Below are positions 19,099 through 43,517 of a stretch of 64,000 nucleotides of DNA, one piece after another. A model generated the notes under the pieces. It did no database searches, was not told the origin of the DNA, and was given only the letters and a program-made list of their open reading frames with translations. The translations under genes and the position numbers were made by a program. The stretch comes from Nitrosopumilaceae archaeon (lineage in GTDB: Archaea; Thermoproteota; Nitrososphaeria; Nitrososphaerales; Nitrosopumilaceae), in contig CBDATR010000024.1 in assembly GCA_965200155.1 (NCBI GenBank), positions 128,001 to 192,000 on the forward strand. The letters run 5' to 3'. Each line of letters opens with the position of its first letter. The first letter of the stretch is position 1.

Positions 19099-19138
19099 CA
19101 CGAAAAACCATGGGTAAAGACTTATGGTGACTGCTATA
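19099..19138 (+). mobile_element. Orphan right end of the TIR-bounded tnpB element family
   Basis: TAAAGACTTATGGTGACTGCTATA is 20/24 identical to the TIR at 41751-41774; upstream CACGAAAAACCATG resembles the subterminal sequence of the other two copies. Confidence 0.65.
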
Positions 19139-28247: not shown

Positions 28248-28600
28248 TATGGCGTCAACCATAAGTCTTGCGTGGTGTCTCGTGCCAAACTGCTCATCCG
28301 GTAAGATGTGACTTGTCATCACTTTTCCCCCTGATGTCTCCGGACGGCTCGCTAGGCGTCTAAACATATGCTTCCAGCTCACTGGGAACCAGCGTTGCCG
28401 GATGAACGTCTCCGGACGGCTCGCTAGGCGTCTAAACATATGCGCAAGGGAATCACGATTACTGGTGTGGCTTGCTCATGTCTGAGGAATGCGTGAACTT
28501 GTGTCCCGCATTTATGGATAATTATTGCTGCCACTATGCTACAAAGCATGATTTGAGATGTGGATACCAATCAGTACAAATGGTTCATTGTCAGACAATA
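28248..28600 (-). mobile_element. Relic 3' part of a second TIR-bounded tnpB element (C-terminal remnants, putative omegaRNA region, right TIR)
   Basis: Reverse complement aligns by eye with 41640-41774; TIR at 28248-28270; deleted remnants TSQ..C and IH..INAGH upstream. Inner boundary approximate. Confidence 0.65.
28336..28443 (-). repeat. Exact 36-bp direct repeat x2 with 36-bp unique spacer (CRISPR-like unit; no cas genes nearby)
   Basis: GTCTCCGGACGGCTCGCTAGGCGTCTAAACATATGC at 28336-28371 and 28408-28443. Confidence 0.9.
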
Positions 28601-39158: not shown

Positions 39159-39250
39159 GTATGAGTTCACCTGTGTCTAAATTTACGTATAACTGATCGC
39201 GACAGTTAATGTGATTTGTGCATAAAATTCCGGAAGACGTGAACTCATAC
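39159..39250. mobile_element. 92-bp MITE
   Basis: TIRs intact; 7-bp duplication AAACGGT. Confidence 0.94.
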
Positions 39251-39371: not shown

Positions 39372-40028
39372 TTACGTAACCTTGTTCGTCTCGTTATCTA
39401 TGATCATGCGCTCATCTCCTGCTATACGACACGCGGTATACCAGCTTCTTCTAGCAAAATCTGGAAACATGCCGGTGGTGTGATATATCTGGGCTACACA
39501 ATCCGCTGCCCTGGAATCGCTGGGATAGCCGCTTCCCACATGATGTGTGCGCCGTATACTTGATATGGATTTGTCTCTGGACACTTTGGCTAAAATGGAT
39601 GCTGCAGCCACTACCGTAAACTGTGAGTCTGCCTTGGTATATGCTCGTACGCGTTTGTCTCCGGCCAGTCTGGATAAACGCCTCTCAAAGAGCGAAGCAT
39701 CCGCATAACACGAGTCCACGTAGTATATGTCCGCGAATATGTGTGCCATTATGGCCGCCATGCGCTCCATCTCCAGATCCGCCAAACCATGGAACAGCAC
39801 ACTGTTGTCGATTGTACGGGGGCGCACCCGCTTTATGACGTACCCTGTAGCAACATTTAGTATTGTATCGTACAGGCGCATCCGGGTTCGTGGACTCAGT
39901 ACCTTGGAATCCCGTACCCCTTCTTCATATAGATATGGTAAGGACGTCTCCTCTATTGCAACGCCGGCTATTACCAATGGGCCTATGAAGGAGCCACGAC
40001 CAGCTTCGTCGATCCCGCATGCAATCAC
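39372..40028 (-). CDS. rnhB: Ribonuclease HII
   Basis: GIDEAGRG, VRDSK, KAD, VAAASILAKV.RD, GSGYPSD. Confidence 0.95.
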   Translation of the reverse strand: MIACGIDEAGRGSFIGPLVIAGVAIEETSLPYLYEEGVRDSKVLSPRTRMRLYDTILNVATGYVIKRVRPRTIDNSVLFHGLADLEMERMAAIMAHIFADIYYVDSCYADASLFERRLSRLAGDKRVRAYTKADSQFTVVAAASILAKVSRDKSISSIRRTHHVGSGYPSDSRAADCVAQIYHTTGMFPDFARRSWYTACRIAGDERMIIDNETNKVT

Positions 40029-40567
40029 ACCCTACACCGATCCACTCATTCTTCGTGGTTCTCATAAGTCTTATCATGTGTTATTATCGGCGTATTACAC
40101 AAAAATTAGTTCCGGCGCAAACCACGATAATTTTTACGAGGCGTAGCAATGGCGTGGTGGATACGCGAATCTATGGAGGCGCGGCTATAGTTTAGAGCCT
40201 TTATGTCTGGTATAGCGCCCACCATAAGTCTTTGCCGGGTATAGGACCGTACTTATATAGAACCACTACTAGAGTAGAATCACCAGATGATGGATGACAT
40301 AATTCAGACCGTCATTATACCGTTGAAAAATAATAGGGAATTCTTCCGGCGCGCCGAGATGTTTGGTTACACATCCGATTACGTGTATAACAGGGCGGTA
40401 TCCGAGATCACGCTGGGCGATTACTACACATCCGGAACCACTCTTGAATTGAAGCATGATCCGGCCAAGGTCAAGAATAAGAACGAGTCCGCCAAGTCAC
40501 CATATGGCCTAAAGAAGGTGACTCATTATACGTGAATCAGCTACCACGTTCTAGAACGGTTATCAAG

Positions 40568-40587
40568 AGACGGTTTACCCGTCCAAC
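40568..40587 (-). repeat. 20-bp REP-like hairpin insertion
   Basis: AGACGGTTTACCCGTCCAAC flanked by AAG/AAG; removal restores the tnpB frame. Confidence 0.8.
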
Positions 40588-40802
40588 AAGAATGGTTTGT
40601 TCCTGGAATTGACAAAGTGGCACCGTGATCTGGAGTGGGTGCGCGAGTTACCAGCTAACTATGGACGGGGTGCCATACTACAGGCGTCTGTCGCGTGCAG
40701 ACGGGCGTACAAGGATCATTCTAATTACATACCACACCGGCGCGACAATAATAGAGTAATGTGTGAGTCCACCAATAAGGCGTGGTTCTCGCGAACTATA
40801 CC

Positions 40803-40894
40803 GTATGAGTTCACCTGTGTCTAAATTTATGCATAACTGATCGCGACAGTTAATGTGATTTGTGCATAAGATTCCGGAAGACGTGAACTCATAC
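40803..40894. mobile_element. 92-bp MITE in tnpB
   Basis: TSD ACTATACC. Confidence 0.96.
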
Positions 40895-41483
40895 ACTATA
40901 CCTGCCGGGTATTGGTGTGGTGAGAACAACCAAACCAATCGATCATTCCCGGGACATGCACTCATTCAAGATAGTGGAACGAGTAACCAATAGTAGGGAG
41001 CGTCAATTCGAGATTCACATCAATATACGGGAGAAACCACCGACCGACCGGCGTTGCTCGCGGCGCGGATGTCGGCGGGAAACATCTAGCTGTAACAGTT
41101 GACACGAATGGTAGAACGATAATTCACAACACGAGACATCGTTCCATATTGCGGGAGATTAGCGCACTCCAGAGTATTAGAACGCGAAAGGGTAAGCGCA
41201 GGAAGCGAAAGATTGAGAAACAAATCACTCAATTACGACAGAAAGCGAATAATATCGCGAACGACTCCACGAATAGAGTAGTCCACACGGTCACCAAAGG
41301 TGTGGACAAGGTAATACTAGAGGATTTATAGCCGAAATCAATGACCAGTCATGGCGGGAACCGGAAAAGAGCAATGAACCGCCCCATGCGCGAGAACCGG
41401 GTAGGCGAGTTCTGCCGGAGAGTGGGGCAAAAGTGCGAGGCACTGGGGATTGAATTGGTGGCCGTGCCAGCGAAATACACGAG

Positions 41484-41503
41484 GGGCGGTTTACCCGTCC
41501 AAC
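41484..41503 (-). repeat. 20-bp REP-like hairpin insertion
   Basis: GGGCGGTTTACCCGTCCAAC flanked by GAG/GAG; removal restores KYTSQTCHVCG. Confidence 0.85.
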
Positions 41504-41654
41504 GAGCCAGACCTGTCACGTGTGTGGACACGTTGACGACAAATCACGATCAACTAGGGACACATTCAATATGTAACCAGGAATTTCACGCCGATATCAA
41601 CGCGGCGTTTAGTGACCGGTTTCCCTGTATGGGGCGGCAGAGCGTGTCGTCCGG

Positions 41655-41677
41655 GGGGGAACCGTTCCCCGCCCAAC
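41655..41677 (-). repeat. 23-bp REP-like hairpin insertion
   Basis: GGGGGAACCGTTCCCCGCCCAAC flanked by CGG/CGG; removal restores collinearity with the 28-kb relic. Confidence 0.75.
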
Positions 41678-41893
41678 CGGAGGCGTCAGGGCGGGAATAA
41701 TGGTGACAAGCCAAAGCCATGTACTGTCCAGGAACGAGGTGCCATGTTCTCAAAGACTTATGGTAGCCGCTATAACGGCGCCCGGAGTGCAGTACATGTA
41801 GATATTAGATCTGATCATGGGGCTCCTGGACGGACGCAAACTCTTGCATTATTCTCACATACCCGCGTATGCAAGAACACCAGCCCAAATTTA

Positions 41894-41985
41894 GTATGAG
41901 TTCACCTGTGTCTAAATTTACGCATAACTGATCGCGACAGTTAATGTGATTTGTGTATAAGATTCCGGAAGACGTGAACTCATAC
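41894..41985. mobile_element. 92-bp MITE inserted into an older degenerate relative (~41867-42057)
   Basis: TSD CAAATTTA; flanks resemble the MITE core (AAATTTACG..CAACTGAT). Confidence 0.93.
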
Positions 41986-42145
41986 CAAATTTACGTACAA
42001 CTGATATCGGTGAATATGAAATGATTACGGGCAAGTGTTCAAACGTGGTACCTTATAAAACAAGGTAGTACGGTAATTTTATAAATAGGTACCAGTTATT
42101 ACATTCATGAGAAGTAGAAGTGGTTCCCGAGCCTTCTTGATATAT

Positions 42146-42289
42146 ATGCACAAGCCGGTTGTGGCATCAACTGCTACAGAGTTGAGTTGCTGCCGATGCC
42201 ACCGTGGCATAGATGATGGGGTGGCCGTATCTGCCAGGAATATGCCAACAGGGGAAGTTCAGTTTTTCTGTGACATGCATTGTCCCTGA
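42146..42289 (+). CDS. Small Zn-binding hypothetical protein
   Basis: CCRC..GI.DG.......FFCDMH; TTTATAAA upstream. Confidence 0.5.
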   Translation: MHKPVVASTATELSCCRCHRGIDDGVAVSARNMPTGEVQFFCDMHCP

Positions 42290-42367
42290 TGGCGTATCCC
42301 CATCAATTATTTACGCGCATTACCCCCACTGCAAAAGTAAAACAATACCGGAGAGCGCTCTTTTCGT

Positions 42368-42532
42368 CTAGTCTATGGTATCCTGAGAACGCGATTCTTC
42401 TAAGTACGCCCGCCGCATCTCGTTTATCTTGTCTTTGTCCACTTGTGGCTCATCCTCCACAACCACTATTCCGTCATCATCCTCTACAGTATCGGAGTTT
42501 CTGGATGCGCGCTTACTGTTGGTGTATGCCAA
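42368..42532 (-). CDS. Small acidic hypothetical protein (54 aa; not in ORF track)
   Basis: TTG-start MAYTNSKRASRNSDTVEDDDGIVVVEDEPQVDKDKINEMRRAYLEESRSQDTID. Confidence 0.5.
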   Translation of the reverse strand: MAYTNSKRASRNSDTVEDDDGIVVVEDEPQVDKDKINEMRRAYLEESRSQDTID

Positions 42533-42587
42533 TTTTTAACCGAAAATAACAATGTGTAAATAAATATTGCGATTAAGAGGTTTATGC

Positions 42588-43517
42588 TCAATAGTGCGAA
42601 AAGTAAGTCCGCTTAGGATCCGGCGTACAGTAGTTCAGATTGCACAAGCCATATGGTAAAGAGAATAACAGAGGAATCAAGACAAGAGGCGTTGTCACAA
42701 CCAACATAGCTCAAGACCTGAAACAAGACACGTACGAAGATTGTGAACCAGAGAACGAGAACGACTCGAGTAAAGATGGGCAGGCCCATGATACCAATCA
42801 CCGCCACCCAGATACGAATGGTAACTGAAGCATACAGCAAGGATCCCGCCGGAGTAGTACGTATTGCAAAGAGACTGAGACAGAATTACAATATATCGCG
42901 CAGTATATCACATAATGAAAAAGAACGGCACGACAGTCTCATCACCTGCAAAGTCAGAGTGGGTACGCTATGAGCGTAAATATTCCAATGCAATGTGGCA
43001 TTGGCATGTCATGAAAGATGAGCGCTTCAGGGGGACTGAATCTCATAGATGATGCATCCAGGTGTATAGTCGGAGCGGCACTATTTGAGCATGCAACCTC
43101 AGAGAACGCCGTTCTATTACTGAGACTGGCAATGAAACGATTCGGCGCCCCAGCATCTCGGATAACGGCGCGTGTTTCGTAGGACAATAAAAGGGCAAAA
43201 AGAACTGGAAACCCACTATTCTAGGAAGAACTGCTGGATCAATACATCATACTAATCAATTCCAGGCCATACCACCCGCAGACAAATGTCAAACTGGAGC
43301 GCTTCCATGGAATGATTGAGGACGAGATATGGTATTATGACAGTCTCCGGGATTATGTAGACTACTACAATGAGAGAAGATTGCACTTCTCACTGGATAG
43401 ATAACGGCGAAACACCACTCCAGGAATAAAAAGGCGACCCAGACAATTAGGGCAAATGATGCAAAATGGATGGAGCGGGATGCCAATGACTAGCGGACCG
43501 ACTTTTCATACATTACA
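42588..43517 (+). mobile_element. Decayed IS481-family element (subfamily 2, 930 bp)
   Basis: Perfect 16-bp TSD ATTAAGAGGTTTATGC (42572-42587 / 43518-43533). Confidence 0.93.

Follow-up and report, generated by a model that had tools for sequence, protein, structure and literature searches.

A decayed tnpB element with IS630-like ends in a Nitrosopumilaceae archaeon and its probable mobilisation in trans

The window analysed here, a 64,000-nt stretch of DNA from a Nitrosopumilaceae archaeon (G000:C24:128001-192000), contains a 1,564-bp element at 40211-41774 whose sole gene is a tnpB pseudogene. The host genome, G000, comprises 2.38 Mb in 51 contigs at 46.6% G+C and is 87.6% complete. The element is bounded by terminal inverted repeats (TIRs), the left at 40211-40234 on the plus strand (TATAGCGCCCACCATAAGTCTTTG) and the right at 41751-41774 on the minus strand. 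The two 24-nt arms pair at 22/24 positions (92% complementary), and both end outwardly in TA. The left TA (40211-40212) is presumed to be one half of a target-site duplication, with the right TA at 41773-41774; the TA...TA arrangement is visible at this locus, and the duplication itself is deduced from other elements with the same terminus. Coordinates and a repeat search thus confirmed the initial annotation, made from the sequence alone, which had reported 24-bp inverted repeats (22/24) with TA at both ends and tnpB as the only gene between them. The inverted-repeat search pattern matched four times within the window, compared with 0.01 matches expected from shuffled sequence: at 19117-19136 (minus strand), 28250-28269 (plus strand, one mismatch), 40213-40232 (plus strand) and 41753-41772 (minus strand). 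The first two coincide with further right ends that had been noted near 19115-19138 and 28248-28270.

The tnpB pseudogene occupies 40287-41700 on the plus strand and has been split by frameshifts, stops and a 92-bp miniature inverted-repeat transposable element (MITE) into at least five frames (40278-40532, 40555-40821, 40987-41328, 41332-41697 and 41454-41573). The frame at 40987-41328 matched OrfB_IS605 (PF01385) at 32.0 bits, above the cut-off of 30.5. The frame at 41332-41697 matched the Cas12f1-like TNB domain (PF07282) at 24.4 bits, below the cut-off of 26.3, which sister copies of the element exceed. Segments of the pseudogene share 34-57% identity with a TnpB of the sister species G005, which is intact at 449 aa and itself scores 127 bits on NF040570. 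Alignment to this homologue revealed that the three RuvC acidic residues are kept, namely D (GADVGG), E (LEDL) and D (HADIN), and that the first CxxC is kept (CHVC) and the second lost (ICNQEF), so the earlier reading of three acidic residues and one zinc-finger half was correct. A TATA-box-like TTATATA lies at 40253-40259 on the plus strand, ~30 nt upstream of the ATG at 40287, where the initial annotation had placed a TATA box, and is conserved in sister copies. The stop codon at 41698-41700 leaves 74 nt to the end of the element.

The MITE inside tnpB (40803-40894) is flanked by an 8-bp duplication, ACTATACC, at 40795-40802 and 40895-40902. Further copies of this MITE (GTATGAGTTCAC...GTGAACTCATAC) lie in the window at 39159-39250 and 41894-41985. 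The same MITE is extremely abundant in the 2.38-Mb genome, where two query copies gave 1,226 MITE-only high-scoring segment pairs in blastn, corresponding to roughly 600 copies. The genome also holds an IS66-family frame of 396 aa (PF03050, 100 bits) at G000:C23 (L062:360-1547).

We searched the whole G000 genome by blastn, setting MITE matches aside. The search returned 55 loci related to the element, of which 14, including that of the window, span 1.3-1.65 kb from terminus to terminus. Between the copies, similarity ends within 1-2 bases of the TATAGC ends. An uninterrupted tnpB was found in none of the 18 translated G000 copies, the longest stop-to-stop frame being 334 aa and containing a MITE, and a search of G000 for the TNB domain gave 20 matches, none of them in an intact gene. 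Two further loci, C23:9281-9782 and C5:39106-39581, are internally deleted derivatives of 0.48-0.5 kb in which both termini persist, along with ~380-470 nt from the left side of the element but no more than 40-110 nt from its right side.

The 22-nt terminus, TATAGCNNNNACCATAAGTCTT, occurs at 102 sites in G000 at up to one mismatch and has 0 occurrences in 30 relatives, nine of them from the same genus. Allowing up to three mismatches gave 158 sites in G000, which were clustered into end families by the sequence just inside the terminus: 24 left and 29 right ends of the window's tnpB family, 19 and 18 sites for the two ends of a 112-bp MITE, 10 and 16 sites for the two ends of a 2,045-bp element, 5 left ends of a second tnpB family and 37 sites in small end groups. 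The termini form inverted pairs 91 bp to ~2 kb apart, at the outer edges of repeated elements. The ends of the tnpB element match those of the IS630-like 2,045-bp element and of the MITEs at 20-21 of 22 positions. Beyond the relatives, the terminus matched 35 stretches from species-representative genomes and 45 metagenome contigs, once each and in unrelated taxa. By blastn, neither the tnpB element nor the IS630-like element has similarity to any of these 80 loci, and we therefore regard the matches as chance. The locus C24:232626, at first taken for a nested insertion, proved not to be a clean case.

The 2,045-bp element that shares this terminus lies at C13:13691-15735, and partial copies of it occur elsewhere in G000. 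Its decayed frames match NF033545, the IS630-family transposase, in colinear order (E = 2.4e-5 over profile positions 108-213 and 2.8e-7 over 233-295), and also DDE_3 (PF13358; E = 2e-5 over profile positions 2-70 and 3e-4 over 89-141). The initial annotation had proposed looking for its TIR around an IS630 transposase and around intact tnpB copies. The former was found in these elements; as to the latter, every tnpB copy in G000 is a pseudogene. Among 44 end pairs, none enclosed tnpB together with the IS630-like transposase, nor was a separate helix-turn-helix (HTH) gene found. A profile search of the G000 assembly for the Y1 transposase (PF01797) gave no match. As it stands in G000, the whole system is a fossil, in which every tnpB copy and every IS630-like copy is a pseudogene riddled by later MITE and insertion sequence (IS) insertions.

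To determine the target site, candidate empty sites were rebuilt by script and G000 was searched for paralogues spanning the junction. One MITE is inserted in a host repeat (...CCTCACA-TA-TGCCCATG...) of which 29 of 42 paralogues have TA at the junction and the rest mostly CA or TG; a solo IS630-like end sits at the same TA of this repeat. For another MITE, at C9:45014-45107, the one paralogue found shows a single TA. For the IS630-like element on C13, a single TA was present in 8/8 paralogues in one search and in 4/5 in another. A tnpB copy at C10:271051-272585 could likewise be compared with a paralogue at C24:331479-331562, which has a single TA (74% identity over 86 nt). Single-TA empty sites, suggested earlier as a check, were therefore seen for MITEs, for the IS630-like element and for one tnpB copy. 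The duplication is of 2 bp rather than 3-4 bp, because the bases adjoining TA vary from case to case. These comparisons show that TA is duplicated where elements bounded by this terminus have inserted. A left-flank paralogue of C22:56966 was rejected as an empty site, its similarity ending at the junction.

For the window's own copy (40211-41774), a search for an empty site found none. An orthologous empty site was sought in the same-genus genomes, and the intergenic DNA was not alignable in 9/9 members, because even the flanking RNase HII gene is merely 65-69% identical in DNA across them. We also mapped four runs of public reads across window positions 39400-42600; the contigs break within the termini, and no joint from 40210 to 41775 was among the joints listed (15 of 46). 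In runs X1 and X2 the unique flanks are present at 100% identity, in contigs of ~1 kb and 0.65 kb that show no differences; X2 is labelled 'sponge metagenome'. The flanks are covered ~25-35-fold less deeply than the element, whose summed read depth agrees with its copy number. The ratio of element to single-copy-flank depth in the RNA library resembles that in the DNA runs and is thus uninformative on expression.

Collectively, these results make it highly probable that the element at 40211-41774 represents a non-autonomous, TA-inserting and TIR-bounded transposon of the IS630 type, now dead, which carried tnpB and a structured 3' tail as cargo and was mobilised in trans. The non-autonomous IS630/Tc1-mariner-like carrier put forward in the initial annotation is supported by the shared termini, the decayed IS630 transposase, the single-TA empty sites and the missing Y1 match.

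The left flank of the tnpB elements carries a second, asymmetrical signal. In counts that use unique flanks, left ends of the window's tnpB family have G at -1 in 22/24, T at -2 in 16/24 and T at -3 in 15/24, with TG in 15/24. At all other ends, TG is present in 8/121 (Fisher 4e-9): 1/29 tnpB right ends, 1/25 IS630-like ends and 3/30 MITE ends have it. The genome-wide background is 7.6% of cases in which TG precedes TA. The second tnpB family has AC at -2/-1 in 5/5 left ends and T at -3 in 4/5, that is, (T)AC. The motif therefore lies outside the symmetrical terminus, on one side only, is restricted to tnpB-bearing elements and differs between tnpB families. The simplest reading of these sequence patterns is that it would be the target-adjacent motif (TAM) of TnpB. 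At the window's copy the TAM-like position (40208-40210, plus strand) reads TGG, the family consensus being (A)TTG directly left of the left TA. Of the earlier proposal that a TAM lies left of 40211, the position has held, since a family-specific motif is found there; its role as a TAM is putative.

The 3' tail of the element (41585-41772, plus strand) overlaps the end of tnpB, contains hairpins at 41633-41651 and 41653-41674, and is a candidate omegaRNA scaffold. In an alignment of 21 tails, conservation stops exactly at GCTATA and the flanks beyond are unrelated. A six-helix model, drawn by hand from the consensus, has 93% of cells paired, compared with 38-54% when the partners are slid. Four of its pairs are changed on both sides, which 18/500 shuffles also reach, and its covariation score was reached by 1/500 shuffles. 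The hairpin at 41633-41651 (GGCGGCA/TGTCGTC) recurs in G005 as GGCGGCG/CGTCGTC, with an A-U pair replaced by G-C and in another reading frame, which speaks for constraint at the RNA level. The initial annotation had pointed to a compensatory change in this hairpin relative to the copy near 28 kb. That copy is similar for ~100 nt inward, as had been claimed, and is a solo right-end remnant; its version of the hairpin has one mismatch, and the comparison is weak taken alone. Overall, covariation lends modest support to an omegaRNA. A search of 40000-42100 against Rfam gave no match at E values up to 1.

The related TnpB proteins of G005, a species of the same genus with a complete genome, are found in a different setting. 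We obtained 50 matches to the sequence GGGAATTATATA in this genome, and 11 pairs of them form the TIRs of intact elements that are 1,420-1,479 bp long and have tnpB as their only gene, in open frames of 406-486 aa. Each of the 11 is flanked by an 8-bp duplication, perfect in 9 cases and matching at 7/8 in the other 2. The same 12-13-nt terminus bounds two G005 elements of 2.7-2.8 kb that have 8-bp duplications and an intact IS1595-family transposase (PF12762, 138-140 bits). Left of the duplication, the tnpB elements have A at -4 in 8/11, T at -3 in 7/11 and G at -1 in 9/11, the two exceptions belonging to a diverged subfamily whose tail is different; on the right side, the base after the duplication is C in only 1/11. 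To judge by these sequences, the related TnpB in G005 is carried by a different DDE vehicle and has a similar motif at the corresponding position. TnpB of the G005 type was detected in 3/151 sampled genomes of the order (E <= 1e-20), and the clade is confined, among these 151, to this genus and one neighbour. It is possible, though we hold this only tentatively, that one archaeal TnpB clade has used two unrelated DDE vehicles, an IS630-type one inserting at TA in G000 and an IS1595-type one making 8-bp duplications in G005, keeping a similar TAM, (A)T(T/A)G, 5' of the duplication; the left-only enrichment of G (22/24 and 9/11) might then be a record of TnpB homing. A literature search for TnpB carried by IS1595 found none and returned incidental co-mentions by title or abstract; the supplements of PMC10691335 may list cases.

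The two transposase-bearing G005 elements (L083:179-3015 and L084:148-2837) carry as passenger an N6/N4 DNA methylase (PF01555) fused to an HNH nuclease domain (PF01844). In G000, too, the GGGAATTATATA terminus bounds IS1595-family elements, at C22:6507-9650, C7:13053-13484 and C13:31836-32718, one of which has an open frame of 310 aa (PF12762, 138 bits), as well as small derivatives of roughly 250 bp, for example at C5:38812-39059. At G000:C9:124046 an IS1595-type element is inserted in the end of an IS630-like element.

With comparative support from these two genomes, we infer the roles of the guide, the TAM, the omegaRNA and homing as follows. The tnpB element would be cut and pasted in trans by an IS630-family DDE transposase, inserting at any TA. 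The omegaRNA would be the 3' tail of the tnpB transcript and would run through the right end, the guide being taken from the right flank; in the window, 41775-41794 (plus strand) would be the presumed guide-encoding sequence if the tail RNA reads through. TnpB would read a TAM of ~(A)TTG that directly adjoins the target TA on its 5' side. Excision followed by resealing would recreate the site ATTG-TA-right flank, which could be recut and then repaired from a sister copy, so that copies landing with a TAM on their left may be retained and multiplied. Such retention would explain why the motif is found only at tnpB-bearing elements and only on their left side.

Several observations weigh against parts of this interpretation. 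The IS630 and DDE_3 matches are all under the curated cut-offs, as the matches are to pseudogene fragments. In the assembly we found no intact IS630-family transposase, the four DDE_3 matches all being below the cut-off and in broken frames; with neither an intact transposase nor an intact tnpB there, mobilisation in trans rests on the shared ends alone. Two paralogous sites for the second tnpB family are without a clean TA: GT takes its place in one, and the other, which is similar over only 11 nt on the left, lacks any TA. A single-TA empty site, taken alone, fits both a TA duplication and an IS605-style insertion 3' of a TTGTA-like target, and cannot separate the two. An RNAalifold consensus of the 21 tails has 0/21 pairs with a compensatory change, and the hand-drawn structure was derived from the consensus of a region that is in part coding. 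As a control for the target preference of IS1595, G000 provides just three clean elements with 8-bp duplications, in which G is at -1 on 3/6 sides, too few for a comparison. Retention by homing is itself an account proposed here to explain the flank motif.

Three other explanations were considered. The first keeps the IS630-type carrier and takes tnpB as inert cargo, the left motif arising from an orientation-dependent target preference or from founder effects. It is consistent with the death of all copies and with the modest covariation support for an omegaRNA. Against it, the 24 unique flanks represent independent insertions. Moreover, the motif differs (TTG versus TAC) between two tnpB families with the same termini, is absent from elements with these termini that lack tnpB, and has a similar counterpart in G005 on another vehicle. 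We therefore regard inert cargo as unlikely.

The second explanation is that the tnpB elements are ordinary IS200/IS605-type elements of the IS1341 group, moved by a Y1 TnpA, with the left motif as a TTGTA-like TnpA target and the IS630-like ends as secondary. IS605-type elements show exactly such a left-only flank motif, the single-TA empty sites are equally compatible with this model, and two comparisons in the second tnpB family lack a clean TA. However, IS200/IS605 elements are characterised by hairpin ends, the absence of TIRs and duplications, and a Y1 transposase, whereas here TIRs and TA sites are present and PF01797 is unmatched in the 87.6% complete genome. The initial annotation had named as contrary evidence any homology continuing beyond the TIRs into IS605-type hairpin ends, and the similarity instead ends exactly at TATAGC. 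The 22-nt ends are inverted and 20-21/22 identical to those of the IS630-like element and the MITEs; the tnpB-less elements with these ends have proven TA sites and no flank asymmetry; and the homologous TnpB clade of G005 has 8-bp duplications in 11/11 cases, a DDE hallmark. The DDE route is preferred because the inverted termini are shared, because insertion at TA is proven for the elements without tnpB and because no Y1 match was found, and we consider the IS605-type explanation improbable, slightly more so than inert cargo. Finally, that the 22-nt motif is a regulatory site (a promoter or transcription-factor site), a possibility raised earlier and in keeping with the TATA it contains and its very high frequency in the genome, is extremely improbable, as it always marks the edges of repeated elements, paired in inverted orientation at the points where similarity ends, the insertions are missing from paralogous sites and the motif is absent from the 30 relatives.

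The surroundings of the element within the window include genes and other repeats. On one side lies an RNase HII gene (PF01351, 123 bits) at 39375-40028 on the minus strand, with short unassigned open reading frames opposite, and a Nop56/58-type gene (PF01798, 207 bits), in keeping with an archaeal host, is in the element's neighbourhood. The right end at 28250-28269 (plus strand) is a solo remnant of a related tnpB family, consisting of the terminus and ~100 nt of tail-like sequence inward. Just inside it, a 36-nt direct repeat with a 72-nt period occupies 28336-28371 and 28408-28443; the 36-mer is present once more, at G000:C24:85416-85451, and holds the GACGGCT-CGCT-AGGCGTC hairpin to which the initial annotation had pointed. 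At 19117-19136 (minus strand) a solo terminus with ~28 nt is truncated by another high-copy IS. Window positions 42588-43200 are the start of another high-copy IS, with at least 30 copies genome-wide at 93-96% identity, whose frames include an integrase-core-like ...SDNG... stretch.

TnpB in IS630-type elements has been described before. Altae-Tran et al. (PNAS 2023, PMC10691335) describe an IS630-associated 'DDE-6' branch of TnpB, with an IS630-family transposase, a separate HTH protein and symmetrical ends, and solo TnpBs in nearly identical ends that were read as mobilised in trans. The initial annotation had treated TIR/DDE carriers as a trait of eukaryotic Fanzor; this is out of date, and its central idea is already in print for prokaryotes, since IS630-linked TnpB and solo copies are reported in that study. 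By element layout, the present element resembles DDE-6 in having TnpB within IS630-type symmetrical ends, the 3' end of TnpB within 250 bp of the transposon end, and solo TnpB copies whose ends resemble those of a transposase-bearing element. It differs in that TnpB and the IS630-like transposase are in separate elements, the host is an archaeon and all copies are decayed. A review (PMC13565253) lists ISL2, IS630 and IS1031 as DDE partners of TnpB, places the TAM of Fanzors next to the 5' duplication, and describes IS200/IS605 elements as lacking TIRs and duplications and dependent on Y1 TnpA. Fanzor1 in Tc1/mariner-type transposons, as presented there, is alike in combining a TnpB-family nuclease with a TA-duplicating TIR/DDE carrier and in having the guide beyond the end. 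Unlike Fanzor1, the element studied here has a prokaryotic host and a TnpB-sized protein (~450 aa in the intact G005 homologue), and it is not a Fanzor member.

Two further groups are similar in part. The IS1341 group also has tnpB as sole gene, many copies and a short conserved motif at the left boundary; it differs from the present element, which shares 22-24-nt TIRs with an IS630-like element and sits at TA sites, in a genome where the Y1 search gave no match. IS630-family MITEs, too, have the termini of an IS630-family element, insert at TA and borrow their transposase in trans, and the 112-bp MITEs coexist with the tnpB element in G000. RUP is an example of such a non-autonomous IS630-family derivative. 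Unlike these MITEs, the tnpB element has a protein-coding cargo, a promoter-like box and a structured tail.

The TAM of Fanzors adjoins or includes the 5' target duplication, and most arguments to date for an effect of homing on transposon survival concern IS605/IS607 and Fanzor. The element described here is probably a case from the archaea in which TnpB travelled with a DDE cut-and-paste transposon, and it comes with internal controls, as the same ends without tnpB lack the left motif. It also carries a warning for annotation, in that tnpB-only elements should not be assigned to IS200/IS605 by default. The intact sister system in G005 may serve as a test bed for whether RNA-guided homing aids transposons that make target-site duplications, with the TAM adjoining the duplication. 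If true, the reading in which one TnpB clade has used two vehicles would mean that homing biases which cut-and-paste DDE transposons survive.

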